Assembly: GCA_903835075.1 (NCBI GenBank)
Contig: CAILLM010000008.1
Span: 25,498 to 89,497 of the forward strand
DNA length: 64,000 nucleotides
From: Candidatus Staskawiczbacteria bacterium
GTDB taxonomy: Bacteria; Patescibacteriota; Minisyncoccia; Minisyncoccales; Staskawiczbacteraceae
Direction of reading: 5' to 3'
The notes below the pieces were generated by a model, which saw nothing but the letters and a program-made list of their open reading frames with translations, was not told the DNA's origin and did not search any database. The position numbers and the translations under genes were made by a program. Shown in pieces: positions 3,507 to 64,000 of the stretch (positions are counted from its first letter, which is position 1; the number at the start of each line of letters is the position of its first letter).

Positions 3507-4814
3507 ATGGAAAGGTTTAAATTTATTACTCAAAAAAACTTTGACGAGCTCCCAAAAACATCGGGAGTTTATTGCCTTGCCTCGCCGAAGCTAAAGGGCG
3601 AAGGCGGGTTTGAGGTAATCTATATTGGCAAAGCTATAAACATAAAAAGCAGAGTTAAAAACCATTTTCAACAGCCAAGCTACCGCGACAATTTATTTAT
3701 TGATAAAGTTAGTAAAATTGGCTACTTGGAGACTAACTCAGAAATTGAAGCCTTAATTTTGGAAGCAAATTTAATTAAAAAATATCAACCCAAGTTCAAT
3801 GTTGTTTGGAAAGACGATAAAAACTATTTTTACGTAGCCATTACACAAGACAAATGCCCAATAGTTTACATTACTCACCAACCCTTCGGCTCCGCTCAGG
3901 GCAAGCCCAAACTACTCACTACAAACTACTCACTACAAACTAAGTATATTGGGCCGTTTGTTGAGGGGACTGCTCTAAAAAAGACTTTAAAATATTTAAG
4001 GCGAGCATTTCCATATTACACCAGCAAGAAGCACCCTAAAACAAAATGCACATGGTGCCATTTGGGACTATGCCCTGGGCCCCGCCTCTTCGAGGCGAGG
4101 CTCGACTCGCCCACTGGCGAGGCGGCAAACCTAAGAAAAGAATACAAAAATAATCTTAAAAAATTAGCCCTAATCTTGCAAGGAAAGCGAAGTGCCGTGC
4201 TTAATTCTCTAAAGCGAGAAATGGCACAATTCTCAAAAGAAAGTAAATTTGAAGAAGCCGGAAAAATCCGCGACCGAATTTATAATCTGCAACAAATTAT
4301 GGCCCACAGCATTGTCATTGAAAATTCCAAAGCCACTCAAGAATCTAATGTTGGAGATATTTTTGCAAAAGTTGAATGTTATGACATTTCAAACATACAA
4401 GGGAAATTTGCAACCGGCTCTATGGTAGTTTTTGTAAATGGAGAGTCAGACAAAAGCCAATACAAAAAATTCAAAATTCGCTTAATGGACACACCAAATG
4501 ACATTGCCATGTTAAGAGAAGTTTTGGAAAGAAGATTCAATCACCCAGAATGGAAATATCCTGAGGTAATTTTAATTGATGGCGGGAAAGCTCAATTAAA
4601 CATTGCCATAAAGGTTAAGAATAAACTGCCCATTAAAATTATTTCAATTGCAAAAGGCAGGCAAGAACTGTTTATTGAAGGCCAAAAAAATCCAATACCG
4701 CTAAAATTATTACCACAAAATATTTACAACTTAATTTTGCAATTAGACAGCGAAGCTCACCGCTTTGCAATCACATATCATAAAAAATTAAGAAAGAAAA
4801 ATTTATTGCAGTAA
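3507..4814 (+). CDS. uvrC: Excinuclease ABC subunit C (UvrC) homolog, short form lacking the C-terminal (HhH)2 domain
   Basis: GIY-YIG motif (GVYCL...VIYIGKAINIKSRVKNHF), Cys-rich region (KCTWCHLGLC), UVR-like helix (AGKIRDRIYNLQQI) and the RNase H-like UvrC endonuclease domain (ECYDISNIQGKFATGSMVVFVNG...YKKFKI). Ends at 435 aa. Carries GC-rich in-frame insertions (PFGSAQGKPK; CPGPRLFEARLDSPTGEAANL). Confidence 0.75.
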   Translation: MERFKFITQKNFDELPKTSGVYCLASPKLKGEGGFEVIYIGKAINIKSRVKNHFQQPSYRDNLFIDKVSKIGYLETNSEIEALILEANLIKKYQPKFNVVWKDDKNYFYVAITQDKCPIVYITHQPFGSAQGKPKLLTTNYSLQTKYIGPFVEGTALKKTLKYLRRAFPYYTSKKHPKTKCTWCHLGLCPGPRLFEARLDSPTGEAANLRKEYKNNLKKLALILQGKRSAVLNSLKREMAQFSKESKFEEAGKIRDRIYNLQQIMAHSIVIENSKATQESNVGDIFAKVECYDISNIQGKFATGSMVVFVNGESDKSQYKKFKIRLMDTPNDIAMLREVLERRFNHPEWKYPEVILIDGGKAQLNIAIKVKNKLPIKIISIAKGRQELFIEGQKNPIPLKLLPQNIYNLILQLDSEAHRFAITYHKKLRKKNLLQ

Positions 4815-5251: not shown

Positions 5252-5470
5252 ATGAATCAAATTCTATTTTACTCACAAGTTATCACATCTGTAGTTTTAA
5301 TTGTGCTTATTGTAATCCAACAAAGAGGCGCTGCCTTGGGTTCTGGATTTGGAGGTGGTGGTGAAATTTATGCCACAAAACGCGGAGCACAGAAAAAAAT
5401 ATATTACGCTACGGTTGCAGTAGTAACCATTTTCCTAGTTTTGGGCGTATTAAATATATTAATACCGTAG
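5252..5470 (+). CDS. secG: Preprotein translocase subunit SecG
   Basis: 72 aa with two TM helices flanking the Gly-rich SecG loop QQRGAALGSGFGGGGEIYATKRG. Confidence 0.65.
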   Translation: MNQILFYSQVITSVVLIVLIVIQQRGAALGSGFGGGGEIYATKRGAQKKIYYATVAVVTIFLVLGVLNILIP

Positions 5471-5485
5471 GTTTTAAACCAAACA

Positions 5486-7489
5486 ATGGCAAAGTCAAAG
5501 TTTCCTAAACTTTCTCAATGGAAACAACTTTTTAAAATATTGAAAAAACCCGAAAAAATCTTTTTTTTGATTTTTCTGGTGTTGTTTATTGCATCTGCAA
5601 CTTACCTTGTAGTTAATTTTTATATAAATAATACAAAAGCGGTCCCTGCATTTGGCGGAACATATACAGAAGGCGTTGTTGGTCAGCCAAGATTCATAAA
5701 TCCTATTTATGGAGAAACAAATGATGTTGATAGAACTTTAATAGACCTCACCTATTCCGGATTAATGACTTATGATAAAGATGGAAAACTTATAAATGAC
5801 CTAGTAAAAAACTATCAAATTTCCGACAATGGGAAAACCTATACCTTCCAATTAAAAGACAAACTTTACTGGCAAGATGGCTCTCCCCTTACCGTTGATG
5901 ATGTTATCTACACAATAAAAACAATTCAAAATTCCGACTATAAAAGTCCTTTAAGAGCAAATTGGTTAAACGTAGATGCCAAAAAAATTTCTGACATATC
6001 ATTTGCGTTGTCCTTGGGGTCACCTTACAACTCTTTTCTAGAAAACTGTACAATAAAAATAATCCCTCAACATATTTGGAAAAATATTTTGCCTGAAAAC
6101 TTTGCTCTTTCACCGCACAACCTACAACCAGTTGGCTCGGGGCCATATACTCTTTCTGATATACGAGAAAATAAAGACAGCTTTATAACCAACCTAGCGC
6201 TTTCCGTAAATCATAAATATTATAGTAAGCTGCCATATATATCAGAAATTAATTTCAGGTTTTTTGGTAATAAAAATGATTTAATTAGCGCAGCCAACCA
6301 AAAAACAATTGATGGGTTCCCTGTTTCAGACTTAGAAAATAATGAAGCTTTGGCGGAAAAAGATGTCCACCAAGGGTGGAATACAAATGAAAAATTCCAA
6401 GTTTATTCTTTCTCACTGCCAAGATATTTTGCAGTATTCTTCAACTTACAGAATTCTAGAATTTTGTCTGATGGCAACATCACGCAAGCACTTAATTATT
6501 CTGTTAACAAGCAAGAACTTGCCCAAAATGTATATAATAAATTTAAAATAAAAACACCTGTTGTTAATTCCCCTATTTTGCCAGATTATTTTGGCTATTC
6601 ACAACCAAAAACAACTTACGACTACAATGTAGACTCTGCAAACAAACTTTTGGATAAATCTGGATACAAAGATTCAGGAGCTGGGCAAAGGACAAAAGCA
6701 AACAACAAAAAACCAGCATTTCAGTTTACTGGCTACTTGTCTACAAAATCTAAAGGTAATGAAGTTATAGAGCTTCAAGGATGTCTTTCTAGGCTAGACA
6801 GCAGCTTTAAAACTCTTTTGCAAACAGACCCAAGTGGGAAATATGGCGCAGGGACAGAAGCGGCTGTAACGGCATTTCAAAAAAAATATTTGCCAGGAGT
6901 CCCAACCACAGGAGAAACAGGAACTGGCACAAGAAAAGCTCTAAACACAGCTTGTTTTATAGCTCAAAGTAGCTCTTTGCCCCTACAATTCACATTAACC
7001 ACAATCAACCAACCACAAATGGTTTACACTGCCAATCTTTTAAAAAATTATTGGCAAAAAGTTGGGGTGATAGTTACAATAAAAACCGTAGAGCTTTCAG
7101 AATTAAAAAATGTTATTAAAAATCGTGACTACGATGCCCTACTTTATGGTGAGGCCTTTGGAAGTATCCCTGATTTATATCCATTTTGGCATTCCACACA
7201 AATAAATGACCCAGGGCTGAATCTTTCTGAATATCAGAACACAAACGCTGACCAATTATTAAAAGATGCCCGGGAAACGCTGGACAACAATGTGAAAGCT
7301 CAGAAATATGGAATTCTACAAGACACAATACTTTCGGGCTCTCCTGCACTCTTCTTATACAACCCCGACTATCTCTACTGGGCCTCACAAAAAGTGAAAG
7401 GAATTGATACAATTAAAATAGCTGACCCAGCTAAAAGATTTGAAAATATTCAAAATTGGTATATTAACACACATAGAACATGGAAATAA
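5486..7489 (+). CDS. ABC-transporter substrate-binding protein, family 5 (oligopeptide/nickel OppA/DppA-like), N-terminal membrane anchor, with an inserted putative peptidoglycan-binding segment
   Basis: SBP_bac_5-type N-terminal region (GGTYTEGVVGQPRFINPIY...LTYSGLMTYDKDGKL...YTFQLKDKLYWQDGSPLTVDDV). Internal GKYGAGTEAAVTAFQKKYLPGVPTTGETGTGTRKALN resembles PG_binding_1. Confidence 0.7.
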   Translation: MAKSKFPKLSQWKQLFKILKKPEKIFFLIFLVLFIASATYLVVNFYINNTKAVPAFGGTYTEGVVGQPRFINPIYGETNDVDRTLIDLTYSGLMTYDKDGKLINDLVKNYQISDNGKTYTFQLKDKLYWQDGSPLTVDDVIYTIKTIQNSDYKSPLRANWLNVDAKKISDISFALSLGSPYNSFLENCTIKIIPQHIWKNILPENFALSPHNLQPVGSGPYTLSDIRENKDSFITNLALSVNHKYYSKLPYISEINFRFFGNKNDLISAANQKTIDGFPVSDLENNEALAEKDVHQGWNTNEKFQVYSFSLPRYFAVFFNLQNSRILSDGNITQALNYSVNKQELAQNVYNKFKIKTPVVNSPILPDYFGYSQPKTTYDYNVDSANKLLDKSGYKDSGAGQRTKANNKKPAFQFTGYLSTKSKGNEVIELQGCLSRLDSSFKTLLQTDPSGKYGAGTEAAVTAFQKKYLPGVPTTGETGTGTRKALNTACFIAQSSSLPLQFTLTTINQPQMVYTANLLKNYWQKVGVIVTIKTVELSELKNVIKNRDYDALLYGEAFGSIPDLYPFWHSTQINDPGLNLSEYQNTNADQLLKDARETLDNNVKAQKYGILQDTILSGSPALFLYNPDYLYWASQKVKGIDTIKIADPAKRFENIQNWYINTHRTWK

Positions 7490-8570: not shown

Positions 8571-8636
8571 CAAAAGTTAGAGGGTTTCCGCCAAAGGCGG
8601 ACCAGCCTCGGGCTGACAAGTCCCTCCCGCGGCACA
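8557..8636 (+). repeat. 16-bp direct repeat of the tRNA-Leu 3' end (TCCCTCCCGCGGCACA at 8557-8572 and 8621-8636) flanking a 48-bp spacer with a CCGCCAAAGGCGG hairpin
   Basis: Exact 16-nt duplication read directly from the sequence. The second copy is not part of a foldable tRNA. Confidence 0.7.
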
Positions 8637-8826
8637 CTTCGCTATAGCTCAGCGTAAACAAATAAAATCTCAATAAAATTAAATTAAAAAAATTAAACAA
8701 TTAAAAATGATTACACAAAGACACCCAGCCAGACCTGGCGGGTACAATAGAAAACCTTTGTCCCCCGCTGGGGCCAAAGAAGGACCACGGGCATATCCCG
8801 CTTGGCCAGAAAATAACCCCGCACCC

Positions 8827-15371: not shown

Positions 15372-16478
15372 TTACTCTTTTGGCTTTAGTACTTCTTTTT
15401 TTTCTTCACTTGCTTTTAAAGCTGCTGTTCTGACCTCTTTAAATAAATCTTTATCTGCCTTCAAGGCATTTTTTGTTTGTTCTACGCCAACTCCAAGCTT
15501 TCTTTCGCCAAAAGAAAATGTATTACCTGTTTGTTTTATTACTCCATGTAGCAAAGCTACCCTCAAAACATCAGCAGATTTTGAAATACCCTCATTATAA
15601 TAAATATCAAATTCAGCTGTTTTAAAAGGCGCTGCAACTTTATTTTTTACAATTTTTGCTTTTACCCTGTTTCCAATAATTTCTTCACCAGCTTTTATTT
15701 GAGCAGTGCGGGCCAAGTTAATTCTTACTGAAGCGTAAAACTTTAAAGCCAATCCACCAGGAGTTGTTTCGGGATTTCCAAAAACCATTCCAATTTTCAT
15801 TCTGGTTTGGTTTAAGAATATAACCATTGTGTTTGTTTTAGACATTATGGCAGAAAGCTTTCTACAGGCTTGCGACATAAGCCTTGCCTGCAAACCCATG
15901 TGCTGATCTCCAATTTCACCTTCAATTTCTCTTTGTGGAGTTAAAGCAGCAACTGAGTCAACAACAATAACGTCAATTGTGCCTGTTTTTACCAAAGTTT
16001 CCACAATTTGAAGTGCTTGCTCGCCACTATCTGGTTGCGAAATTAAAAGGTTATCCACGTCCACTCCAATGCGTCCGGCATAGTCGGGGTCCATTGCATG
16101 CTCTGCGTCAACAAAAGCACATGTACCGCCCTTTTTTTGCGCTTCAGCTATCACGTGAAGTGACAAAGTGGTCTTACCAGAAGACTCAGCCCCATATATT
16201 TCTATAATTCTTCCTCGAGGCATTCCACCAACGCCCAATGCCAAATCCATGGCAATTGAGCCTGTCGGTACAACATCAACATCAACCGCATGAATTTCGC
16301 GCATTTTCATAATTGCGCCCTCTCCAAAGCGCTCCTTAATTTCATCTAACGCACTATTTAATGCCTTGTTCTCTCCCGGCGCTGTAACTTTTTTTTCTTT
16401 TTTAGTATCTTTTGCCACGGTCTTGTGAGCGAGGCGAACAAGGTTGCTTCGGTCCCGCTGAGCGGGAACGCTGAACAC
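15372..16478 (-). CDS. recA: Recombinase RecA
   Basis: Walker A GAESSGKTT, the L1/L2 loop region and the full RecA core. The track start at 16478 is a GTG whose first 20 aa are encoded by a GC-rich repeat; the canonical N-terminus VAKDTKKEKK... begins at another GTG at 16418. Confidence 0.9.
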   Translation of the reverse strand: MFSVPAQRDRSNLVRLAHKTVAKDTKKEKKVTAPGENKALNSALDEIKERFGEGAIMKMREIHAVDVDVVPTGSIAMDLALGVGGMPRGRIIEIYGAESSGKTTLSLHVIAEAQKKGGTCAFVDAEHAMDPDYAGRIGVDVDNLLISQPDSGEQALQIVETLVKTGTIDVIVVDSVAALTPQREIEGEIGDQHMGLQARLMSQACRKLSAIMSKTNTMVIFLNQTRMKIGMVFGNPETTPGGLALKFYASVRINLARTAQIKAGEEIIGNRVKAKIVKNKVAAPFKTAEFDIYYNEGISKSADVLRVALLHGVIKQTGNTFSFGERKLGVGVEQTKNALKADKDLFKEVRTAALKASEEKKEVLKPKE

Positions 16479-16507: not shown

Positions 16508-17617
16508 CTATTTTGTAAATTTAAAAGTGGAAAGGAAGCCTTGAAAATCTGCTATATCAAATGCTTGTGCCTCACTTTCTTTAGCAAACAAGGGGCTTGA
16601 AAAAGCTATTGTTACCAAAATTTTATTTGGTTTTTCTATATAAATATTGTAACCCTTATAAAAACCGTAAGGCTCTTGATCCGTTGGTCTTGCCACTCTC
16701 CCAGAAACAAATGTATTAAAAACCGCAGGGAAGCCATTAATATTAGTTTTTTGATAAGATTGATTATTTTTTGCTATATCATCAAGTGTATATCCTTTTT
16801 GAGTTGCAATTTCAAGTTGAGAAGTAGAATTACATTCTGGCGTAAGGTCAAAACAGGTTTGTTTTTGAGTTATTCTTATTGTTGGCATAAAATTACCATC
16901 TTCTTGAGTTGAAATATCTCCCCATTTTAAAGGATACTTAAAAGTAAATCCATATTTTTCATCTGAGTATATTTTCCACCCAGCGGTTTGGTCAATGGTA
17001 TTAGTTTTATTTTCTCTTTTAAAAACACTGACGTTTATATTTTTTTCTAAATTTGGTTGCATTTTTTTCCACTGAATTGAAAGGTCACCGCTTGGCATTG
17101 GAGTGACGGTAAATAAAACATCTCCTTTTTTAAATTGTTTATCTGTGTTATCTGCACCATATGAATCAAAAATAATGTCCATTGGACTTGTAGAATCTTT
17201 TATCGCAACAGCTGCATTAATTCTTGTTAAAGTTTGGAAGCCATCAATATTAACATATGTATATACGTGGCCATCGGCACCATCAACAATAGAAAATTTA
17301 TACATCCAATCTTCATTTGGCGGTGCAGATTCTTCAAATTGATAAGCTCCATACCACGAAAATGGTGCTTTAGTTGCAGATGACAAGCTATTTTGGATAT
17401 TCTTATTTTCAGAAGCCTGTTTTGAAATTAAAAAATATTGCCAGGCAAAAACTCCGCCAAAAACAATACCTGTAAATAATACAATTATTAAAATACCCAC
17501 CCAAGTAGAAATTTGTTTTTTCTGACCTGCCCTGAGCTTGTCGAAGGGTTTAGGCATTATTGGTGGCGTTGGCTGAACCGGCGAATTCATATTTTCTTGA
17601 TTTATATTTGGCTCCAT
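16508..17617 (-). CDS. Hypothetical membrane-anchored extracellular protein
   Basis: N-terminal TM helix (WVGILIIVLFTGIVFGGVFAW), no recognised domain. Contains the in-frame GC-rich insertion encoding PFDKLRAGQ at 17526-17550. Confidence 0.4.
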   Translation of the reverse strand: MEPNINQENMNSPVQPTPPIMPKPFDKLRAGQKKQISTWVGILIIVLFTGIVFGGVFAWQYFLISKQASENKNIQNSLSSATKAPFSWYGAYQFEESAPPNEDWMYKFSIVDGADGHVYTYVNIDGFQTLTRINAAVAIKDSTSPMDIIFDSYGADNTDKQFKKGDVLFTVTPMPSGDLSIQWKKMQPNLEKNINVSVFKRENKTNTIDQTAGWKIYSDEKYGFTFKYPLKWGDISTQEDGNFMPTIRITQKQTCFDLTPECNSTSQLEIATQKGYTLDDIAKNNQSYQKTNINGFPAVFNTFVSGRVARPTDQEPYGFYKGYNIYIEKPNKILVTIAFSSPLFAKESEAQAFDIADFQGFLSTFKFTK

Positions 17618-28731: not shown

Positions 28732-29013
28732 TAATTATTTGTGCGAAGAATAGTTCACGCTTCGCGATTAAAAATATTTAAAAATTTTAACTATTAACAC
28801 AAAATACCCTTTTCTTTAGGGCATTTATCCCTCATCTTTTAAATAAAAAAATTTCGGCAATAAAAAATAACCGAGATGAGGGTTTTCGTTTTTCTAGAGT
28901 AAAGTTTGTGTGGCCACTGCTTTTTTATAGCCCGTTGATCAGACAGGCCTTAGTAAATGTATGTTATTCTATTTTTTAAAAAGTGTCAATACCTGCCTGC
29001 CGGCAGGCAGGGT
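28732..29013 (-). promoter_or_regulatory. Long (~280 nt) structured rpoB leader with a candidate promoter (TTGACA-N17-TAACAT on the minus strand, near 28960-28990) and a CCTGCCTGCCGGCAGGCAGG palindrome at 28992-29011
   Basis: Inverted repeats CCCTCATCT...AGATGAGGG, CCCTAAAGAAAAGGG and GCGAAG...CTTCGC in the leader. The 20-bp perfect palindrome sits just upstream of the -35. Confidence 0.35.
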
Positions 29014-29901
29014 CTAAACCACCGATGGTGTCGCCTCTTGAGCTTTATCTTTTTTCAAATTTAAGAAAGCTGAGATAATGAGCAATATTGAAAATAGAAA
29101 TGTAAATGTTAATTTAGGTGAAATTGCACCTAGGATGCTGGTTATAATAATTGGAGTAATCATTAATTGCATACCCGCCTTGTAGGAGCCTTTATATCCA
29201 ATTTTCAATTCTTTAATTTTTGCAATCAGCCATACTAGCAAAGCACCAAATAACAAATAAACCATATGCACCAATACTAAAAAGAATCCCCCTATGTACG
29301 CTCCAATTATGATTATTGGGTAAAGAATGACTAAGTATGGCTTAACTTTATTTACTCCCATAGAAATTATGTCTCTATTTAATGTGACATCTTTAACTTC
29401 CGATAACGGTGCCACTGTGATTGCGCCATCTTTCATATAAATTGCACTGTCTGCGGTTAAAAGTAGGAAAGTTTTGTAGGAATTGAAAGTTGCCACATCA
29501 AATTTATTTTTAGTATCAATTACCACCAAATTATCCAACTGAGTTAATTTATTCGCTGGAATACCGTTTATCTTAGCATCGGACGAATTAAAACCATTAT
29601 TATCCTTAAATGCATCGGGCATTTTTATAAAATAAGGCTCTTGAACGTTTGTAGAAACAACGCCATTTTTAACGCTTATTATAAGTTCTTGTGGAAAATA
29701 ATTAGGCGCCAAAGACAGTTTGCTTGGCAAAGCGCTAACAAATGGGGTAAGTTTTACAGTAGCTACAACTGCAAAAACCACGGCGAAAAGCAACGCAAAA
29801 GCTAACAAAAACTTAAATGAATAAGAAAATGGTTTTTCTAAAACTTCTTTATAATATTTAGGACTGTAAATGCTATTTTTTATTTTTACAAAAATATTCA
29901 T
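29014..29901 (-). CDS. Polytopic membrane protein, hypothetical (DUF1189/YIP1-like appearance)
   Basis: 295 aa with several TM helices. N-terminal IYSPKYYKEVLEKPFSYSFKFLL motif. Confidence 0.35.
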   Translation of the reverse strand: MNIFVKIKNSIYSPKYYKEVLEKPFSYSFKFLLAFALLFAVVFAVVATVKLTPFVSALPSKLSLAPNYFPQELIISVKNGVVSTNVQEPYFIKMPDAFKDNNGFNSSDAKINGIPANKLTQLDNLVVIDTKNKFDVATFNSYKTFLLLTADSAIYMKDGAITVAPLSEVKDVTLNRDIISMGVNKVKPYLVILYPIIIIGAYIGGFFLVLVHMVYLLFGALLVWLIAKIKELKIGYKGSYKAGMQLMITPIIITSILGAISPKLTFTFLFSILLIISAFLNLKKDKAQEATPSVV

Positions 29902-47584: not shown

Positions 47585-47617
47585 GACCCAGAACTTGTCG
47601 AAGGATCGCTTTTTTAA
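47585..47617 (-). terminator. Terminator-like hairpin downstream of the 47622 gene, containing the CTTGTCGAAGG repeat core
   Basis: AAAAAAGCGACCCAGAACTTGTCGAAGGATCGCTTTTTT: imperfect stem with flanking A/T runs. It shares CTTGTCGAAGG with 17536-17547. Confidence 0.45.
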
Positions 47618-47621
47618 TTTT

Positions 47622-48014
47622 CTATATTTTTTCTACTGTTTCCCAATCACCCTCCACCCAAAGCAAAATAACCTCTACAGGGAAACCAAAAGACTCAACA
47701 GCTTCTTTACATTTTTTCAATTGCTCTATTTGTTCTTCTTTTGGTACGGGATTGCCAGCACAACCAAAATGTCCTGCAACTGCAACAACTTTTGATCCAT
47801 GGTGTTCAACGGAAATTGCCACTCTTTTTTTGATATCTTCTATTATGGCCATATCACAAGCCTCATGATTACAAATAATTCTATTAGGGCCAGGTTCAGT
47901 TACCATGTCCACGTAATCAACGCTGTAATTATTTTTCATATAATTTTTAACAGCGTCTTGGACTCTACCATCCATGCAATTTATTGCACATGCAAATGTT
48001 TTATCTGATATCAT
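47622..48014 (-). CDS. Beta-class carbonic anhydrase-like protein (short)
   Basis: CMDGR and GHFGCAG correspond to the C-x-D-x-R and H-x-x-C-G zinc-ligand motifs of beta-CAs. The ATG at 48014 is taken as the start (the track start at 48059 is a TTG). At 130 aa it is shorter than typical. Confidence 0.4.
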   Translation of the reverse strand: MISDKTFACAINCMDGRVQDAVKNYMKNNYSVDYVDMVTEPGPNRIICNHEACDMAIIEDIKKRVAISVEHHGSKVVAVAGHFGCAGNPVPKEEQIEQLKKCKEAVESFGFPVEVILLWVEGDWETVEKI

Positions 48015-48103
48015 ATTATTAAGCGAGGCAATAAACTTTTTGCAGGCCTCAGGACACAAAGTGCCTGATAGCCGGAAAAAAGATTGTTGCCGAGCTATAA
48101 TTA

Positions 48104-48685
48104 CTATTTATGAAAGCCTAGGTCTGCTGGGTTATTTCCGCCAGAAATTAAGGTAATTTTCCCGCCTCTAGACTCAAATTCTTTTCTTAATTTTTTAACT
48201 TCAACTGACAAATTTACTGTTTCTTCCCCTATTTCATATTTAACATGACCTTTTGACCAATATTCTACAACTAATTTACTGTCACCAAAAATCTTACCAG
48301 CCCTGAGTCGCGTCGAAGGGTCTTTCATTTCTTTTAATGCTAATTCCAAGGCTTTTTTACAAGCAAGTAATTCTCCATAATTATTTGTAACACCATGCCC
48401 CAAATTTTCTCGTAAAAAACTTTTCCCATTTTTATCAGCCACCTGAATTTCAACTCCTTCGCCACTCCCCGTGCCCGCGTCAAAATAAATTCCGTCTTCA
48501 ACAGCAATATTTTTTATTTTATAATCAGCCCCTGCATTTAGCCAAGCCTCGGCCGCCTCTTCTGTTTCAAAACCTTTAAATTTTGCGCCATTTTTACCTG
48601 CAACAATTTCTTGGCATTCTGGCCAGTTATCAGTTATCCCCTGCTTGCCATCAACTAAATATGCATAATATTTTCTTTTTGCCAT
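48104..48685 (-). CDS. rnhA: Ribonuclease HI with N-terminal hybrid-binding (caulimovirus viroplasmin-like) domain
   Basis: N-terminal YYAYLVDGKQGITDNWPECQEIVAGKNGAKFKGFETEEAAEAWL; RNase H core DAGTG...TNNYGELLACKKAL...GDSKLV. Contains the in-frame GC-rich insertion PSTRLRAGK. Confidence 0.75.
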   Translation of the reverse strand: MAKRKYYAYLVDGKQGITDNWPECQEIVAGKNGAKFKGFETEEAAEAWLNAGADYKIKNIAVEDGIYFDAGTGSGEGVEIQVADKNGKSFLRENLGHGVTNNYGELLACKKALELALKEMKDPSTRLRAGKIFGDSKLVVEYWSKGHVKYEIGEETVNLSVEVKKLRKEFESRGGKITLISGGNNPADLGFHK

Positions 48686-54794: not shown

Positions 54795-54860
54795 TTTTAA
54801 AATTTAATTATTTTTATTTAAGTTTATGCCTGCCAAAATAAAAGTCAATAATTTTTGTTT
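54795..54860 (-). promoter_or_regulatory. Promoter module copy B (minus strand TTGACT-N16-TAAACT) upstream of 54502..54792
   Basis: Near-identical duplicate of 54241-54300. Confidence 0.5.
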
Positions 54861-54893
54861 ACATTGAGCCTGCCGAAATGATAATATAAACAC

Positions 54894-57158
54894 ATGATTA
54901 CATTGGCGACCAAGATAGAGGAAATTCCTAAAGTTGGCGTAGCTTACGCAAAAAAGTTAAAGAAGTTTGGCATAAAAACTGTGCAGGATTTGCTTTTTTA
55001 TTTTCCTGCGCGATACGACGACTTTTCAGAAATAATTTCAATTAAAGAAGCCAAGCAAAGATTGGGTGAAACTGTTTGCGTGCAAGGGCAAATTATCCAA
55101 ATGGAGAGCTCTAACTCTTTTAGAAAATTTATGAGTTTAACGCAAGTCATTATTCAGGATGACACTGGAGAAATTGGCATTATTTGGTACAATCAGCCTT
55201 ATTTAGCAAAGTCTTTAAAAGAAGATGATTTTATTTGCGTGGCAGGGAAAATAAGCTTAGGCAAAGAAGGCATTTATTTTGCTTCACCAACTTATGAACG
55301 CATAAATTATATTGGCGAAAACGAAGAACTAACTCACACAGGCCGAATTGTACCGGTTTATGCCGAAACCCGCGGCGTTACTTCCCGCTGGTTGCGATAT
55401 GTTATAAAACCATTGCTTTACAGGTTTTGTGAACAAATACAAGAATCTTTACCAAAAGAAATAATTAAAAAATACAAATTTTTGCCAATTCAGGAAGCTG
55501 TTTGGCAACTGCATTTTCCAGAATCTTTTGAACATGCCGATGCTGCCAAAGCAAGATTTTCTTTTGAAGAACTTTTTTTAATCCAGCTGAATGTTTTAAA
55601 AGAAAAAATTAAATTAATGGTAAAAAAAGCACATGCTTGCCCAATGGACAATGATTTGCTTAAAAAATTTACCGATTCTTTACCGTTTCAACTAACAGAT
55701 TCTCAAAAAAAATGCGCCTATGCAATTTTAAAGGATTTAGAAAAAACTGTTCCAATGTCGCGGTTGCTTGAAGGCGATGTTGGAAGTGGCAAAACAGTTG
55801 TAGCGGCAATGGCCGCGCTAAACGTAGTCAAAAGCGGGCATGCCGCCTCCGCCAAAGGCTACGGCGAGCCAAGGCAAGTAGCTTTTATGGCTCCAACGGA
55901 AATTTTGGCAAAACAACATTTTAAGTCGATTTCTGAAATGGTAAAACCGTTTGGGGTTACAACCGGCATGTTAACTGGGAAAGATGCTAGAATTTGCAGA
56001 AGCGGAGAAGTCTTTGAGGTTTCCAAAAAAAGTTTACTGGGTGATTTGGAGAATGGCCAGATTGATATTATTATCGGAACTCACTCACTGATACAAAAAG
56101 GAGTAGAATTTTCCCGCCAGGGGCGGGATCCCGCTGGGGCGGGAAAAGATTTGGCTTTAGTAATTTTAGACGAGCAACATCGGTTTGGCGTGGAACAGCG
56201 TGACCACTTAATAAAAAATAAAAAGATTGTCCCCCATTTGCTTTCAATGACCGCCACCCCAATTCCAAGAACTTTGGCTTTAACTGCTTATGGTGATTTA
56301 GATTTATCTTTGATTGATGAAATGCCTGCCAACAGAAAAAAAGTTAAAACAATTATTGTTGAACCACAACAGAGAAAACAAGCTTATGAGTTTATAAAAA
56401 AAGAAGTTTCCGAAGGCAAGGGCGTTTTTGTTATTTTTCCTAAAATAGAAAGCGCTGCTTCAAAACTTGCTGAAACAATTAAAGAAAAAGGCCCAATTAC
56501 AGGGTCAGCAGGATTTGCTGTACAAAATTACCCTACTGCCCCACTTTCTTTGTCATCTTTGGCCATAAACGAAGTTAAATCCTTAAAGGAAGAATACGAA
56601 AGATTGTCAAAAGAAGTTTTCCCGGATTTACGAATTACAATGCTTCACGGAAAAATGAAAGCCCCCGAAAAGGAACGCATTATGTTAGATTTTAAAAAAG
56701 GTGAGATTGATATTTTGCTTTCCACTTCAGTTGTTGAAGTTGGAGTTGATGTTCCCCGCGCCACTATAATGATGATTGAGGGAGCCGAACGTTTTGGGCT
56801 TTCACAACTTCACCAATTCCGCGGACGCGTTGGCCGAAGTGACATGCAATCTTATTGCTTTTTGTTCACCACAGACCCAAGTATGTTAAACAGAAAACGG
56901 TTAAAAGCATTGGTGGAGTCTAACAATGGTTTTGAATTAGCAGAAAAAGATTTGGAAATTAGGGGCCCGGGCAGTTTATATGGCACACAGCAATGGGGAA
57001 TTCCCGACATGGCAATGCAAGGTTTAAATAATATATTTTTGGTTGAAAAAACGCGAGCAGCTGCAAAAGAAATTTTAGAAAAAGATCCAAAACTAGAAAA
57101 GTACCCCGAGCTAAAAGAGCGCCTAAAAGAATTCCAAAAAAGAATTCACTTTGAATAA
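54894..57158 (+). CDS. recG: ATP-dependent DNA helicase RecG
   Basis: N-terminal wedge domain, helicase motifs (GDVGSGKT, DEQHRFG, C-terminal RecG motifs). Contains an in-frame GC-rich nested palindrome at 56109-56147 encoding FSRQGRDPAGAGKD. Confidence 0.9.
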   Translation: MITLATKIEEIPKVGVAYAKKLKKFGIKTVQDLLFYFPARYDDFSEIISIKEAKQRLGETVCVQGQIIQMESSNSFRKFMSLTQVIIQDDTGEIGIIWYNQPYLAKSLKEDDFICVAGKISLGKEGIYFASPTYERINYIGENEELTHTGRIVPVYAETRGVTSRWLRYVIKPLLYRFCEQIQESLPKEIIKKYKFLPIQEAVWQLHFPESFEHADAAKARFSFEELFLIQLNVLKEKIKLMVKKAHACPMDNDLLKKFTDSLPFQLTDSQKKCAYAILKDLEKTVPMSRLLEGDVGSGKTVVAAMAALNVVKSGHAASAKGYGEPRQVAFMAPTEILAKQHFKSISEMVKPFGVTTGMLTGKDARICRSGEVFEVSKKSLLGDLENGQIDIIIGTHSLIQKGVEFSRQGRDPAGAGKDLALVILDEQHRFGVEQRDHLIKNKKIVPHLLSMTATPIPRTLALTAYGDLDLSLIDEMPANRKKVKTIIVEPQQRKQAYEFIKKEVSEGKGVFVIFPKIESAASKLAETIKEKGPITGSAGFAVQNYPTAPLSLSSLAINEVKSLKEEYERLSKEVFPDLRITMLHGKMKAPEKERIMLDFKKGEIDILLSTSVVEVGVDVPRATIMMIEGAERFGLSQLHQFRGRVGRSDMQSYCFLFTTDPSMLNRKRLKALVESNNGFELAEKDLEIRGPGSLYGTQQWGIPDMAMQGLNNIFLVEKTRAAAKEILEKDPKLEKYPELKERLKEFQKRIHFE

Positions 57159-57215: not shown

Positions 57216-57246
57216 AAAAAAACCGCCGAAGGGCGGTTTTTTTAAT
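57216..57246. terminator. Bidirectional terminator (AAAAAAACCGCCgaagGGCGGTTTTTTT) after recG; also closes the minus-strand GC-rich island transcript
   Basis: Perfect 6-bp GC stem with A/T runs on both sides. Confidence 0.8.
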
Positions 57247-58390: not shown

Positions 58391-59980
58391 TCACTTTCGA
58401 ATCTTCTCAGTGACCCAAAATCCCATGTATTTGCCTAGCATCAAACGAATTTGGGCGTCCAAGGCGGGCAGCGAACCAAAGACAATTAATGTAACTGGTA
58501 AAAATATCCATTGCAAAAATACTGAAGCGCGCTTTCCAATTCTTTTATACCATTTTATGGTTTTTGGAATTGGTGGCAAAAGCATTGTGCTTAAAATTGC
58601 TGAAACCATCATGCCTGCCAAAGAAACAGTCATAATTTGCCCAGTTAAAATGGGCAAATTAAAAGACAAAATTGTAAAATTAAATTGATGCCCACCCAAA
58701 AGAATTGGCAACCAGCCGAGCATAAAAAGCAAAAGTGAAGCTGTTGCCCAAGACCAAAATCCATCTAAAATTGTGTAAATGTGACCAATTTTTTCGCGCA
58801 AAGGAATTTTTTTGTTTTGAATAAATCCAAACATTATATACGGAATTTCGGCACAACCCCAAGCCCAACGTTTTTGTTGTTTGTATTGATTGATTGCTGT
58901 TCTCCAAACACTTTTTGCCATAACAGCATCCATGGAAGCCAAATAATACATTGGCACAACTCTGTACTTTGCATCATAATTTAAATATGCACGCCAGAAA
59001 ATTCGCGAGTCATCGGAAACAACATTTGCAGGATACCCCACTTCAAAAAATACTTTTGCGGGAGTGGAATGCGAAGAGTATGTTGTAAGTTTTTCTGAGC
59101 GCTCTTGCTGAATCATTTGCCAAAAAGTATTTGAAGTTGAAACAACTCTGGCAAAAGCAGAAGCTGTCCAAATGTTGTTGTTGTAAACAGGAATTGGCTG
59201 ATAGCTGGCACTCTCTGGGTTTTCTTCTGTTAAATATAAATAAGTCAGCCGTGCAAAATATTGCGGAAAAACTTTTGTATCTATGTCAAAAGTAGAAATT
59301 AAAATATTTTCGTAAGGAATTCTTAATTCATCAATTATTTTTTCTTTTACTTGCTTACCTGCATATGCGGTATTTGAACCCTTACCTGCGATTTCACCCT
59401 CTATATTGTCTGGGTGCACAACAACCATAAATTTATAAAATTCGTGAGAATGTTTATTGGCAATAATTCTGGCTTGTTTTTCAAAGTTTTCACCAGCCCT
59501 GGCCTCAACCGCCAAAACAATAATCATTTTTTCTTTGGGATAATCACACTTGATTAAGGTTTCCAAACTTTCTTCTATCAAATCTTCTTCTTCTTGGTAT
59601 GTTGGTAAAATAATTACATGATAAATATTTTTCCAGCTTGCCCTGAGCGACCTGCCCTGAGTGAAGTCGAAGGGAGTCGAAGGGTTTTTCAATTCTTTCA
59701 ATTCTTTTAGCCAATCAACCTTCATATTTTTTTTAACTCTAAAATATCCTACAACTTGGTGCAAAGAAAAATAAAAAACTCTAAAAAGATAGTAAAAACA
59801 AAAACAAATAATAAAAATAGCAATTTGTGCTGGAAACAACCACGACAAAATAAGCACGCCAAAAAGCGTGCTTAAACTCATAACACCGGGAATAATCTCA
59901 AAAAATCTGTAAAGTCTTCTGTCTTTCGGATTTTTTAAGTCCGAAGCTTTTGAGATGTCTAAATAATCTTTTTTCTCCAT
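58391..59980 (-). CDS. Processive family-2 glycosyltransferase (cellulose/chitin-synthase-like integral membrane GT2)
   Basis: N-terminal TM helices, GT-A catalytic region with D..D, and the Q-x-x-R-W motif (QQKRWAWG) followed by C-terminal TM helices. Contains the in-frame GC-rich insertion FDFTQGRSLRAS at 59641-59690. Confidence 0.65.
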   Translation of the reverse strand: MEKKDYLDISKASDLKNPKDRRLYRFFEIIPGVMSLSTLFGVLILSWLFPAQIAIFIICFCFYYLFRVFYFSLHQVVGYFRVKKNMKVDWLKELKELKNPSTPFDFTQGRSLRASWKNIYHVIILPTYQEEEDLIEESLETLIKCDYPKEKMIIVLAVEARAGENFEKQARIIANKHSHEFYKFMVVVHPDNIEGEIAGKGSNTAYAGKQVKEKIIDELRIPYENILISTFDIDTKVFPQYFARLTYLYLTEENPESASYQPIPVYNNNIWTASAFARVVSTSNTFWQMIQQERSEKLTTYSSHSTPAKVFFEVGYPANVVSDDSRIFWRAYLNYDAKYRVVPMYYLASMDAVMAKSVWRTAINQYKQQKRWAWGCAEIPYIMFGFIQNKKIPLREKIGHIYTILDGFWSWATASLLLFMLGWLPILLGGHQFNFTILSFNLPILTGQIMTVSLAGMMVSAILSTMLLPPIPKTIKWYKRIGKRASVFLQWIFLPVTLIVFGSLPALDAQIRLMLGKYMGFWVTEKIRK

Positions 59981-59990
59981 GATATAAACT

Positions 59991-60028
59991 GGCTTGCCCT
60001 GAGCGAGCGAAGCGAGTCGAAGAGTGGC
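59991..60028. repeat. Intergenic full-length copy of the GC-rich element: GGCTTGCCCTGAGCGAGCGAAGCGAGTCGAAGAGTGGCC
   Basis: The termini CTTGCCCTGAG...GTCGAAG(G) match the in-frame copies in uvrC, tsaD, rnhA, the GT2 gene and the 16508 gene. Confidence 0.7.
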
Positions 60029-60089
60029 CCTACCGGGATTTGAACCCGGGTTTTATGCTTGAAAAGCACGCGTCCTAGACCAGGCTAGA
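60015..60089 (-). tRNA. tRNA-Glu (anticodon TTC)
   Basis: Minus strand: acceptor GGCCCTA/TAGGGCC, D-arm TCGTCTAGCCTGGTCTAGGAC typical of tRNA-Glu, anticodon loop TTTTCAA, T-arm CCGGGTTCAAATCCCGG, discriminator A. Confidence 0.7.
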
Positions 60090-60161
60090 CGATAGGGCCT
60101 TGTCATATATAAATAAATACTAACCCGAAAATTGAAATAATTCAAGGTTTGGTGTAAGATT

Positions 60162-61364
60162 ATGCATAAAAGCATGAAAATATTAGCCATAGAAACATCT
60201 TGTGATGACACGGGAGTTGCTGTTTTAGAGGTTTCTAAAACCAGTAATTTTAAAGTTTTATCTAATGTCATTGCCTCACAAATAAAAGTCCACCAAAAAT
60301 ATGGCGGAGTTTTTCCCATGATGGCGAAGCGTGAACACCAGCGCAATTTAGTTCCTGTTTTTATGCGCGCGCTAAAACAGGCTAAATTGCTGAAAATTTC
60401 TAATTCCCAATTTCTAATTTCTAAAACAGAAAAAATAAAAGAAATCTTAGGGCGGGAACCGGAACTTTATAAAAAATTAGTTTCTTTTCTAAAAAAATAT
60501 GATAAGCCAAAAGTAGATTTTATCTCGGTTACAAATGGCCCGGGGCTAGAACCATGTCTTTGGGTTGGAGTTAATTTTGCAAAAGCCTTGTCTTACGTTT
60601 GGGATATTCCAGTAATTCCTGTTAACCACATAGAGGGGCATATTTTGGTAAACTTTCTTAATCCTAGACCCCATGCCCTAAATCCTAAATCCTTCCCCGC
60701 TATTGCTCTAGTTGTTTCTGGGGGGCATACACAAATTATTTTAGTTAGAAAACCCTTCGGCGCGGCTCAGGGCAAGTTGTTCAGTTATGAAATTTTAGGT
60801 GAAACCAGAGATGACGCTGCTGGTGAATGTTTTGATAAATGCGCAAAAATTTTAGGATTGGGTTATCCTGGCGGACCAATTATTTCAAAAATGGCTGAAG
60901 GCATAAAACCAACAAACACCCTCCCCCGCCCAATGTTTAATACAAAAGATTATGATTTTAGTTTTTCAGGATTAAAAACAGCCGTGTTATATGCCGACAG
61001 AAAGGTTGCAAACAAAAATATAAATTATAAGCGCGCGATGTCTGCTGAAGTTCAGCAAGCAATAATAGATGTTTTAATTAAAAAAACTACAAAAGCAATT
61101 AAAGATTTTGGTGCTAAATCTTTAATTTTAGGGGGAGGAGTTTCAGCGAATAAAGAACTGCGAAAACAATTTAAGGCCTGCCTACTCGGGCAGGAAAAAC
61201 TCATAGACACAGAATTAATTTTCCCCGAACCAAAACTATCAACAGACAACGGGTTAATGATTGCAGTAACAGGATATTTTAACAGAAGAAATAGCCTTCA
61301 ACCCGGCTCAGTCCAAGCCAAAAAATGGGAAAAAATTGTTGCAAACGGAAACTTAAGAATTTAA
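60162..61364 (+). CDS. tsaD: tRNA N6-adenosine threonylcarbamoyltransferase TsaD (Kae1/YgjD)
   Basis: MKILAIETSCDDTGVAVL (canonical start probably the ATG at 60174), metal-binding HIEGHI, ASKH-fold. Contains a ~50-aa insertion and the in-frame GC-rich element PFGAAQGKLF at 60753-60776. Confidence 0.85.
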   Translation: MHKSMKILAIETSCDDTGVAVLEVSKTSNFKVLSNVIASQIKVHQKYGGVFPMMAKREHQRNLVPVFMRALKQAKLLKISNSQFLISKTEKIKEILGREPELYKKLVSFLKKYDKPKVDFISVTNGPGLEPCLWVGVNFAKALSYVWDIPVIPVNHIEGHILVNFLNPRPHALNPKSFPAIALVVSGGHTQIILVRKPFGAAQGKLFSYEILGETRDDAAGECFDKCAKILGLGYPGGPIISKMAEGIKPTNTLPRPMFNTKDYDFSFSGLKTAVLYADRKVANKNINYKRAMSAEVQQAIIDVLIKKTTKAIKDFGAKSLILGGGVSANKELRKQFKACLLGQEKLIDTELIFPEPKLSTDNGLMIAVTGYFNRRNSLQPGSVQAKKWEKIVANGNLRI

Positions 61365-62092: not shown

Positions 62093-64000
62093 ATGGAATT
62101 ACCTTCTAATTACAACTCAAAAGAAGTTGAAGATAAAATTTACCAGCTTTGGGAAAAGAGTGGTTTTTTTGCGCCCGAGGCGCACCAACCTAGGGCTGGT
62201 AATCCAAACAGAAATAAAACTTTCTGCATAATAATGCCCCCAACAAACGCCAATGGAAATTTGCATGCTGGCCATGCTTTGGTTATGACAATTGAGGACA
62301 TTATGACCCGCTACAAAAGAATGCGAGGCTATAAAACTTTGTGGTTACCAGGACTAGACCACGCCGGATTTGAAACGCAAGTTGTTTATGAAAAAAAACT
62401 GGAAAAAGAAGGAAAAAGCCGTTTTAAAATGGCTCCCGAAGAATTATATAAAGAAATTACCGGGTTCACCAATGAGAACAAAAAAAATATAACCAACCAA
62501 GTTAAAAAAATGGGAGCCAGTTGTGATTGGAGCCGAGAACAATTTACCTTAGATAAAAATATAATAAAAATTGTTTATAATACTTTTGAAAAACTTTACA
62601 AAGATAATTTAATTTACAGGGGTAAGAAAATAATAAACTGGTGTACAAAGCATCAAACTTCCCTTTCAGACCTAGAAACCGCTGACGTTGAAAAACAAGA
62701 TAAGTTTTATTATTTAAAATATGGCCCATTTACAATTGCCACTGCTCGCCCCGAAACAAAATTTGGTGATAAATATGTGGTAATGCATCCAAAAGACAAA
62801 CGATATTCAGATTACACAGACGGTCAAAAAATTGACTTAGAATGGATAAATGGCCCCATAACTGCGACTGTAATTAAAGACGAAGCCATAGACATGGATT
62901 TTGGAACGGGTGTTATGACAATTACACCTTGGCACGATGCAGTAGACTTTGGAATTGCCGAACGTCACAATTTAGAAAAAGAACAAATTATAGATTTCTA
63001 TGGAAAACTTTTGCCAATTGCAGGAGAATTTTCTGGCATGAAAATTACAGAAGCCCGACCTTTAATTATTGATAAATTACAAGCAAAAGGATTGGTTGAA
63101 AAAATAGAAGAAAACTATAAACACGTTGTAAAAACTTGTTATAAGTGTGGTTCTTTAATAGAACCACAAATAAAAGAACAGTGGTTTTTAAAAATGTCCG
63201 CCCAAGGTGGATCCGCCTCGGGCGGAAAGTCTTTGGCAAAACCTGCGATAGACGCAATTAAGTCGGGAAAAATTAAATTTATCCCAGAACACTATAAAAA
63301 AATTGCCCTACATTGGCTAAATAATATTATTGATTGGAATATTTCTAGGCAAATTGTTTGGGGCATACCAATTCCGGCAAAAACTTGTGAGAAGTGTAAC
63401 GAAATTTTTATTGATGTTGAAGACAAAATAACTTCTTGCAAAAAATGTGGCGGAAATTTAATAAAAGAAACCGACACTTTTGACACTTGGTTTTCTTCGG
63501 GACAATGGCCGTATGCAGTTTTAGACTACCCAAAGGGTAAAGATTTTAAAACTTTTTATCCCACTGACATTATGGAAACTGGAGGAGACTTAATTTTCTT
63601 TTGGGTGAGCAGAATGATAATGTTTTCTTTGTATAACACGGGCAAAATTCCGTTTAAAATAGTTTACTTGCACGGGCTGGTTATGGATGCCAAGGGACAA
63701 AAAATGTCAAAATCTAAAGGAAATGTTATAAACCCCTTAGACCTAACAGATAAATTTGGCACAGATGCTTTACGAATTGGTTTGGTTGTTGGCAACACTC
63801 CTGGCACTTCCCTGCCGTTAGATGAAAATAAAATAAAAGCATACAGAAATTTTGCTACAAAAATTTGGAACGCCAGCAGGTTTGTTCTAATGAACTTAGA
63901 AGGCTACAACGAAAATGCAAAAATCGCATTTACCGCAAACGACAAAAAAATATTGGGAGAATTTAAAAAAATAACAAAAGAAATAACCAAAGAAATGGAT
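62093..64000 (+). CDS. valS: Valyl-tRNA synthetase (N-terminal ~635 aa; continues beyond the window)
   Basis: MELPSNYNSKEVEDKIYQLWEKSGFF, HIGH-type PPTNANGNLHAGHA, KMSKSKGN at ~63700. The frame is open to the window end. Confidence 0.85.
   Translation, partial: MELPSNYNSKEVEDKIYQLWEKSGFFAPEAHQPRAGNPNRNKTFCIIMPPTNANGNLHAGHALVMTIEDIMTRYKRMRGYKTLWLPGLDHAGFETQVVYEKKLEKEGKSRFKMAPEELYKEITGFTNENKKNITNQVKKMGASCDWSREQFTLDKNIIKIVYNTFEKLYKDNLIYRGKKIINWCTKHQTSLSDLETADVEKQDKFYYLKYGPFTIATARPETKFGDKYVVMHPKDKRYSDYTDGQKIDLEWINGPITATVIKDEAIDMDFGTGVMTITPWHDAVDFGIAERHNLEKEQIIDFYGKLLPIAGEFSGMKITEARPLIIDKLQAKGLVEKIEENYKHVVKTCYKCGSLIEPQIKEQWFLKMSAQGGSASGGKSLAKPAIDAIKSGKIKFIPEHYKKIALHWLNNIIDWNISRQIVWGIPIPAKTCEKCNEIFIDVEDKITSCKKCGGNLIKETDTFDTWFSSGQWPYAVLDYPKGKDFKTFYPTDIMETGGDLIFFWVSRMIMFSLYNTGKIPFKIVYLHGLVMDAKGQKMSKSKGNVINPLDLTDKFGTDALRIGLVVGNTPGTSLPLDENKIKAYRNFATKIWNASRFVLMNLEGYNENAKIAFTANDKKILGEFKKITKEITKEMD

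Follow-up and report, generated by a model that had tools for sequence, protein, structure and literature searches.

The uvrC gene at coordinates 3507-4814 of the window analyzed here (the whole stretch of 64,000 nucleotides, positions 25,498 to 89,497 of contig CAILLM010000008.1 from a Candidatus Staskawiczbacteria bacterium) contains a 24-nt segment at 3882-3905 that encodes the octapeptide PFGSAQGK, and closely related segments are present in four other genes and at several non-coding positions of the same window. A sequence-only reading had described these as a dispersed, palindromic mini-element inserted in-frame within conserved genes of a genome resembling those of the Candidate Phyla Radiation (CPR). 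The CPR-like character is borne out, the nearest named homologues being from Candidatus Staskawiczbacteria, and the coordinates, encoded peptides and gene assignments could be reproduced, with Pfam identifying the five hosts as UvrC, TsaD, a glycosyltransferase family 2 (GT2) protein, an RNase H1-like protein with an N-terminal Cauli_VI domain, and a DUF5991 protein.

The window has a G+C content of 35.6%. The left box of the motif, CCCTTCGRC, matches seven times where 0.24 matches are expected, and the right box, CTCAGGGC, matches seven times where 0.86 are expected; the two-box pattern CTTCGRC-N(0-30)-YTCAGGGC is found at six loci (3882-3905 (+), 17526-17550 (-), 48297-48322 (-), 59641-59690 (-), 59991-60028 (-) and 60753-60776 (+)), compared with 0.00 expected from 100 shuffles. 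With three further copies that are decayed or variant the window holds about nine, and the repeat family is confirmed as real and dispersed. All five coding copies are in the sense orientation relative to their host genes, so that the copies previously described as lying in reverse orientation do so in window coordinates only. An assembly artefact is ruled out by contigs from three ENA accessions (L001-L003), which agree with the window at 99.98-100% identity over the common regions and across the units; L002 and L003 cover the GT2, tRNA-Glu and tsaD units, and L001 covers both tsaD units. Several look-alikes were set aside: the CCCTTCGGC hit at 57225 comes from the stem of an ordinary terminator and is unrelated to the repeat, a match at 16257-16267 reads by eye as native RecA-like coding sequence, and loose patterns returned a tRNA T-arm in locus L193 and a different palindrome in the TsaD of L187 and L190. 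The units of the window are as follows.

3882-3905, plus strand: uvrC unit CCCTTCGGCTCCGCTCAGGGCAAG (PFGSAQGK), in the linker behind the GIY-YIG domain, directly after …ITHQ.
17527-17550, minus strand: canonical unit …CCCTTCGACAAGCTCAGGGCAGG of the DUF5991 gene (PFDKLRAG), ahead of the N-terminal membrane helix.
47585-47608, minus strand: probable degenerate unit TCCTTCGACAAGTTCTGGGT, in sense, in the loop of a terminator-like hairpin directly past the stop codon of gene 47622-48059.
48297-48322, minus strand: unit CCCTTCGACGCGACTCAGGGCTGG of the RNase H1-like gene (PSTRLRAG), in a different frame.
54862-54880, minus strand: non-coding unit with an AT stem, CAT-TTCGGCAGGCTCA-ATG followed by TAAAC, between recG and the upstream divergent gene.
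59641-59690, minus strand: nested pair of two 24-nt units in the GT2 gene, read as PSTPFDFTQGRSLRAS.
59997-60024, minus strand: non-coding unit with an enlarged loop, CTCTTCGACTCGCTTCGCTCGCTCAGGGCAAG, right behind the discriminator base of a co-oriented tRNA-Glu gene (60024-60099).
60753-60776, plus strand: tsaD unit CCCTTCGGCGCGGCTCAGGGCAAG (PFGAAQGK), in a beta-hairpin turn.
61294-61317, plus strand: decayed 24-nt tsaD unit GCCTTCAACCCGGCTCAGTCCAAG (SLQPGSVQ).

Homologue alignments, TsaD structures and an AlphaFold2 model agree that the coding copies are lineage-specific, in-frame insertions of eight residues at loops and linkers of conserved proteins, as had been proposed. The tsaD unit at 60753-60776 corresponds to exactly 24 nt inserted between AAA AAA and ATT relative to the syntenic genes of L125 and L126. 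When aligned, solved TsaD structures have a gap at exactly PFGAAQGK, between two strands, and in the AlphaFold2 model residues 197-207 form a loop (pLDDT < 50) between strands 190-196 and 209-216. Most of 120 CPR TsaD homologues read ILVK-KI-GKYKILGE, i.e. the site is empty, and a scattered few have PFDFAQGR, PFGAAQGK, PFDLTQGK, SFDSAQDK or TFNLVQGK; the filled versions of one TsaD site are scattered over the TsaD tree, and across the family such peptides are found at no fewer than seven positions and in three reading frames. The window and L124 have the same TsaD insert (24/24 positions), in proteins that share only 64% identity and with many synonymous differences in the neighbouring codons. 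The decayed unit at 61294-61317 is missing in L125 and L126, and homologues P0026/P0052 have PSAGSGR or PSASSGR at this place. Two other TsaD homologues (P0047 and P0098) have PACRQAG or PARRQAG two residues off the site of the 60753-60776 unit.

The remaining hosts present a similar picture. Of 120 UvrC homologues, 15 have a family peptide at this site; in many others the site is empty (ITHQ-KT-EDAEYIGPF), and in some it holds unrelated inserts. The RNase H1-like protein is eight residues longer than 22 homologues (…ALKE--GIKKIFGDS), the addition lying between …ALKE and KIFGDS, and of two homologues of the DUF5991 protein one (P0398) has an empty site (…MPK/QKKQIPTW) and the other (P0396) has TFDKLRAG in place. 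The GT2 copy had been regarded as tandemly expanded, but its boxes follow the order A-A-B-B, with an outer unit (CCCTTCGACT/…/TCGCTCAGGGCAAG) that holds an inner unit (CCCTTCGACTTCACTCAGGGCAGG) within its loop. This arrangement would be explained more simply by one nested 24-nt insertion than by two slippages, because either slippage, of 10 nt or of 14 nt, would have put the gene out of frame. In relatives with 88% identity the GT2 site is empty (L124 and L125) or has the outer unit alone (L126, TCCTTCGGCTTCGCTCAGGACAAG), and the latter shows a compensatory T…A change in its stem (TCC/GGA).

The UvrC of the lineage is itself short (435 aa), with GIY-YIG, UVR and RNase H-like endonuclease domains; no Pfam match to a C-terminal helix-hairpin-helix was returned for it. 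The simple repeat AAACTACTCACTACAAACT… at 3909-3935, beside the 3882 unit, encodes LLTTNYSLQT and is present in some homologues too. A second insertion hot spot lies at 4064-4128, past the LCPGP motif, with RLFEARLDSPTGEAAN in the window; UvrC homologues have other families at this site (LLFENPPSPEASAGL, QVLSEVEGG…), and in many it is empty (LCPGP-NP-DL).

Wherever a junction is readable (the TsaD sites, the inner GT2 unit, the second tsaD unit and the DUF5991 gene) the insertion is of eight codons, or 24 nt. The consensus of 40 clean CPR units is [A]-NNN-TTCG-(5 or 6 variable nt)-CTCA-N'N'N'-CARG, in which the base at position -1 is A in 32 of the 40 and the 3' end is CAAG or CAGG. NNN and N'N'N' form a 3-bp closing stem, mostly CCC/GGG in the Staskawiczbacteria-like CPR lineage; in the window the triplets are CCC/GGG in the coding copies and CAT/ATG at 54862. 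The sense strand is free of stop codons in all frames, and the antisense strand has a TGA in one frame. Depending on the frame the unit is translated as PFGxAQGK, PFDKLRAG, PSTxLRAG, PSTSSGQ or TLRQAQGK, with mixed forms when the loop is 14 nt, and since the peptides vary in this way the conservation resides in the nucleic acid and not in the peptide.

A sample of 84 CPR loci, 0.94 Mb in total, contains 51 distinct units (about one per 18 kb) and none in a reversed-sequence control. Thirty-three of these are inside open reading frames (ORFs) of 150 aa or more, at 22 distinct gene sites, and the flanking peptide context identifies LeuRS, RecG, a ComF-like protein and ribosomal protein L19 as further hosts. 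Relatives at 88-92% protein identity lack units or have simpler ones at the same sites (the GT2 site being empty, single or double), and most of the indels (6 nt or longer) that set the window apart from L125/L126 are GC-rich inserts. The presence and absence of units among relatives fits recent gain or loss, and the many sites, the scattered filled sites and the identical inserts in diverged genes point to an element that keeps arriving and not to ancient peptide segments. The mobility suspected earlier is in keeping with all of this, and with the nested copy.

The orientation of the units is strict. TTCG…CTCA is on the coding strand in all 33 coding units and at all 22 gene sites, with no true antisense case, and no antisense family peptide was found among the 120 TsaD homologues. 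Two of the three antisense frames are open, giving an expected antisense share of about 40%, and by our own arithmetic the chance of finding no antisense copy in 20 independent sites is ~4e-5. The GT2 and tRNA-Glu genes (-) and tsaD (+) are divergent and about 1 kb apart, and each has sense copies, as is also true in L126; orientation therefore follows the gene and not the chromosome strand, and replication-strand targeting as in IS200/IS605 was rejected on this account.

Among 193 distinct CPR tRNA genes, eight have a unit or a related copy at the 3' end, all co-oriented: tRNA-Glu (window, L126 and L141), tRNA-Leu (L126, L141 and L187), tRNA-Arg (L129) and tRNA-Phe (L175). By the strict pattern, five of the eight units lie directly past the discriminator base, at an offset of 0 to -2 nt relative to the tRNA end as called. 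The copy noted earlier as intact and intergenic at 59991-60028 is one of these: it is present as described and adjoins tRNA-Glu on its 3' side, ahead of the GT2 start codon, with a unit at the same tRNA-Glu offset in L126 and L141 and none in L124. The GT2 start codon of L124 (gene running from 4252 downwards) abuts the tRNA-Glu (4253-4328) 3' end with no spacer (…GGGCCAC/ATGGAGAAAAAAG), and several other relatives have a few bases between the two; in the window the unit fills this gap (59980-60024). With little or no spacer between tRNA-Glu and the GT2 start, the GT2 mRNA may be released from a tRNA-mRNA co-transcript. Non-coding units are found in other positions also. The unit at 54862-54880 is kept at the same place in L126, and L124 has a unit directly past the gyrA stop codon. 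The core previously placed in a terminator at 47585-47617 is plausible as a degenerate copy: 16 of 20 bases agree at 47585-47608 in a manual base-by-base reading, which is suggestive only.

The repeat extends well beyond the CPR. The unit in the DUF5991 gene contains, at 17529-17548, a 20-mer (CCCTTCGACAAGCTCAGGGC) for which a scan of species-representative genomes gives exact matches in at least 120 genomes, spread over more than 15 phyla; by our own estimate roughly one chance match is expected in 596 Gb. By record title the hosts among the matches listed include Actinomycetota, Alpha-, Beta- and Gammaproteobacteria, Acidobacteriota, Chloroflexota, NC10, Armatimonadota, Saccharibacteria, Chlamydiota, Planctomycetota, Bacteroidota, Campylobacterota, Verrucomicrobiota, Calditrichota, Thermodesulfobacteriota and Eremiobacterota. 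This does not agree with the earlier proposal of an element class distinct to CPR genomes. The 20-mer is also present in 88 IMG/VR contigs, at 10-22 places per Sphingobium megaplasmid, and on Moraxella (1-2 per plasmid; M. osloensis is a culturable carrier) and Sinorhizobium plasmids, the plasmid copies being unannotated or lying under "hypothetical protein". In cultured phages there is no full-length 20-mer, just a 19-nt match in one Pseudomonas phage lineage.

In these genomes an invariant 13-nt loop (TTCGACARGCTCA) is closed by a stem that varies through compensatory substitutions. Of 94 units found through the 13-nt core alone, 82 have complementary flanking triplets, with at least ten different triplet pairs, and across 76 distinct non-CPR, non-seed units pairing at the three inner positions of the stem is 93-99%, each position showing four or five pair types. 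The covariation score is not reached in any of 500 shuffles, and pairing in slid controls is only 27-39%. The usual form in Proteobacteria is an inverted doublet, CCGTTCG-GGC-TGAGCYTGTCGAA-GCC … CCC-TTCGACAAGCTCA-GGG-CGAACGG. A metagenome-assembled genome of the Actinomycetota (L077, 7515-7606) has a tandem array with a 24-nt period and four exact copies, and nested, onion-like A-A-B-B arrays are found in other phyla (L016 at 5400-5560, L026 and L082).

A covariance model trained solely on non-CPR units scores 17527-17551 at 30.4 bits (E = 3.7e-6). It gives 15.5 bits (E = 0.066) to 54859-54883 and 13.4 bits (E = 0.26) to 47585-47608, and only 8-9 bits (E = 4-8) to 3879-3904, 48298-48323, 59994-60027 and 60750-60775; the low scores arise because the loop centres differ in the CPR copies. 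The CPR variants retain TTCG…CTCA and the stem, with the 5-6 central loop bases changed, and as judged from these sequence features the CPR repeat appears to be a local variant of a pan-bacterial hairpin repeat with a fixed loop and a free stem. At gathering scores Rfam returns only the tRNAs in the window and nothing in 13 motif-bearing loci, and a permissive Rfam search of a doublet gives just sub-threshold, microRNA-like hairpin noise (E up to 10).

Taking these observations together, we consider it probable that the segment at 3882-3905 belongs to a dispersed family of very small insertional repeats, 24 nt long and non-autonomous, which is a local variant of the pan-bacterial hairpin. The units are insertions, polymorphic among relatives; permissive sites are hit repeatedly, new copies nest in the loops of old ones, orientation is linked to transcription, and attachment at tRNA genes is directly past the discriminator base. 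As the module length is a multiple of three an insertion does not shift the frame, and a sense copy in a surface loop adds only eight tolerated residues and can persist even in essential genes. A co-varying stem with a fixed loop suggests that a protein acting in trans recognizes the hairpin while it is single-stranded. HUH nucleases typically recognize hairpins of variable stem by their loop, and for this reason an HUH-type or REP-transposase-like nuclease would be the leading candidate mobilizer, although none is tied to the units. Insertion might occur into the exposed non-template strand of transcribed DNA, tRNA genes being the most heavily transcribed; alternatively, antisense copies might be purged since the complementary RNA hairpin folds better or is attacked. 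The copies next to tRNAs and past stop codons may since have acquired a role as hairpins for processing or termination.

Several results weigh against the interpretation as a mobile repeat. RNA and DNA fold predictions of either strand find no strong fold, being no better than shuffled sequence (z about 0); the description of the unit as palindromic is weak, as only CCCT/AGGG pairs, at -2 to -7 kcal/mol, and the complementary RNA hairpin CCCUGAG…CGAAGGG is predicted at -6.1 kcal/mol compared with -3.4 for the sense form. The structural argument therefore depends on covariation and not on thermodynamic stability; that the stem might continue through the loop by tandem G·A pairing (TGAG…CGAA strand) was considered as an idea only. 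There is neither a target-site duplication nor a terminal repeat at the one clean junction, in TsaD, so that the hallmarks of classical cut-and-paste transposition are lacking. Apart from 17527-17551 the copies in the window reach just 8-15 bits with the pan-bacterial model. No transposase, REP-associated transposase (RAYT), integrase or reverse transcriptase is tied to the units. An all-against-all comparison of 237 ORFs lying no more than 600 nt from a unit, taken from 120 genomes, yields clusters of two at most; it covered flanks only and included no Y1 domain scan. The relatives are about 75-80% identical in DNA, so that most junctions are not base-exact and gain is indistinguishable from precise loss. 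The start of recG has the non-coding unit at 54862-54880 next to it in antisense, and the sense-only rule could come wholly from selection and not from the mechanism of insertion.

A bolder proposal is that a cryptic but widespread machinery inserts 24-nt TTCGACARGCTCA hairpin modules in a manner coupled to transcription, through either the non-template strand or an RNA intermediate. We regard this as doubtful; if true, it would account jointly for the pan-phylum loop, the sense orientation and the attachment at tRNA 3' ends, would mean that the smallest bacterial mobile elements known move in a new way, and would be a general source of eight-residue loop insertions in the proteins of reduced genomes. 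A specific RNA route, in which a unit would be attached to a transcript, or copied off one, before a reverse transcriptase carries it back into DNA, seems quite unlikely. It would yield the sense-only copies in transcribed regions that are seen at the 22 gene sites, and the units start just past the discriminator base, where RNase Z cuts if the tRNA gene encodes no CCA; a diversity-generating retroelement (DGR) reverse transcriptase (RVT_1 plus bAvd) in the syntenic region of L126 also indicates that such enzymes exist in the lineage. However, there is no reverse transcriptase among the five window proteins checked, poly-A or priming signatures are lacking, and the route is inferential throughout; the copy at 54862-54880 is antisense to recG, and the intergenic inverted doublets of other phyla, which occur in both orientations, fit DNA-level hairpin elements better.

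It is very unlikely that the distribution reflects a few ancient insertions passed on by gene conversion or horizontal exchange and lost elsewhere by precise deletion. The same TsaD and UvrC sites are filled in scattered lineages and the inserts of the window and L124 are identical at 24/24 positions, as this would predict, yet the flanking codons differ at many synonymous sites and no exchanged tract is visible; the 22 or more gene sites in three frames, the nested unit, the copies at tRNA ends and past stop codons, and the same 20-mer in unrelated contexts of more than 15 phyla are also hard to reconcile with it. There is similarly a slim chance that the unit is a host-selected signal, i.e. 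a binding or processing site with a role in tRNA 3' maturation, transcript stabilization or termination, the coding copies having an RNA or peptide role. The loop conserved across phyla with its co-varying stem, the precise and repeated placement at tRNA 3' ends and right past stop codons, and the conservation of the 54862-54880 unit in L126 would be expected of such a signal, and the identity of the TsaD inserts despite diverged flanks could mean purifying selection. Set against these, the coding copies are missing from most orthologues, close relatives included, the three frames give unrelated peptides and hence no conserved peptide function, and decayed copies exist. A role for the non-coding copies is possible as domestication, which is compatible with a mobile, insertional repeat.

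Among known systems, the palindromic elements of Rickettsia (RPE) had been offered as the precedent, and as a functional analogy this is fair: both are selfish-looking, in-frame repeats at surface positions of conserved, even essential genes, to which they add a short peptide. The anatomy differs. RPEs are reportedly palindromes of about 100-150 bp that add 30-50 residues and are confined to the Rickettsiales, whereas the present module is 24 nt (eight residues), has a 3-4 bp stem with no long palindrome or terminal repeats, and spans more than 15 phyla, so that true homology to the RPE families, with which only the behaviour is shared, is effectively refuted by size and structure.

The closest known kind are the small dispersed repeats (SDR) of the Nostocaceae, said to be very small mobile repeats of 21-27 nt in heterocystous cyanobacteria that form hairpins with compensatory changes and can be nested. 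Size, the compensatory-change hairpin, presence or absence in relatives, nesting, intragenic location and the lack of an associated gene are common to SDR and the present units, and are not taken to indicate homology. SDR are reported from the Nostocaceae only, whereas the loop motif described here spans more than 15 phyla, and the sequences of the two are probably unrelated. Neither a strict orientation in sense nor attachment at tRNA 3' ends is known to us for SDR.

Repetitive extragenic palindromes (REP) are extragenic, species-specific in sequence, usually carry a 5' GTAG/GGAG at the hairpin foot, and flank a RAYT gene. REPs and their doublets (REPIN) are hairpin repeats mobilized by RAYT (TnpA-REP) HUH transposases (Bertels and Rainey 2011, PMC3116915; PMC6006769). 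The present units resemble them in being short, GC-rich, multi-copy, non-autonomous hairpins in which the single-stranded form is likely to be recognized, and proteobacterial loci commonly have inverted doublets with a spacer, as in REPIN, the CPR copies being single or nested. They differ in that 33 of 51 CPR units are intragenic, the loop is conserved across phyla with a variable stem, and the 5' flank is A-rich (A at -1 in 32/40) with no GTAG. Miniature inverted-repeat transposable elements are 50-500 bp compared with 24 nt, and the units lack terminal inverted repeats, nor does the clean TsaD junction show a duplication. The GC clusters of yeast mitochondria are strain-polymorphic, GC-rich hairpin inserts in an AT-rich genome that are sometimes inside coding sequence and translated through; they are distinguished by their location in an organelle of another kingdom, by other sequences, by the absence of a conserved-loop, variable-stem logic, and by having no known orientation rule. 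The present repeat is unusual among very small hairpin repeats in its cross-phylum loop, its strict sense orientation and its tRNA ends, and literature searches by peptide, DNA or RNA string, and topic found no relevant description of it.

The repeat accounts for odd eight-residue insertions in the TsaD, UvrC, RecG, LeuRS, ribosomal protein L19, RNase H-like and GT2 proteins of CPR bacteria, and such inserts can mislead alignments, phylogenies, domain models and structure prediction. That a 24-nt element colonizes essential genes without harm is explained by its length and its stop-free sense frames, which are neutral to translation. The CPR copies are connected to a hairpin repeat that is not in Rfam and has a 20-base core identical across more than 15 phyla, and the conserved loop with its co-varying stem, the sense-only rule and the attachment to tRNA ends provide testable handles on a trans-acting machinery. 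The presence or absence of units could also serve for strain typing and divergence dating in lineages that are available from metagenomes only.

Inserts of other sequence families are present elsewhere in the window. The recG gene has two in-frame, GC-rich insertions of 33 nt at 55842-55874 and 56112-56144, one encoding AASAKGYGEPR and the other SRQGRDPAGAG, the latter made up of two copies of the palindrome TCCCGCCNGGGGCGGGA between TTT and AAA; both are missing in three relatives at 86-92% protein identity. Further GC-rich palindromes lie at 28991-29015, 8588-8642, 61175-61194, 62170-62200 and 63196-63226, among them a perfect CCTGCCTGCCGGCAGGCAGG in a spacer, CCGCCAAAGGCGG… past tRNA-Leu, GGCCTGCCTACTCGGGCAGG in tsaD and CCGCCCAAGGTGGATCCGCCTCGGGCGG in the next gene, and several are missing in L125 and L126. 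The DGR genes of L126 (2947-5569) are between recG and GT2 and comprise RVT_1, bAvd and a target gene of the Lcl_C type, which are missing at that place in the window, L124 and L125. Finally, a cluster of four or five small genes with T4SS_pilin (PF18895) matches lies by gyrA in L001 (7911-9608) and in the syntenic L124-L126, downstream of the window end in the same contig family.

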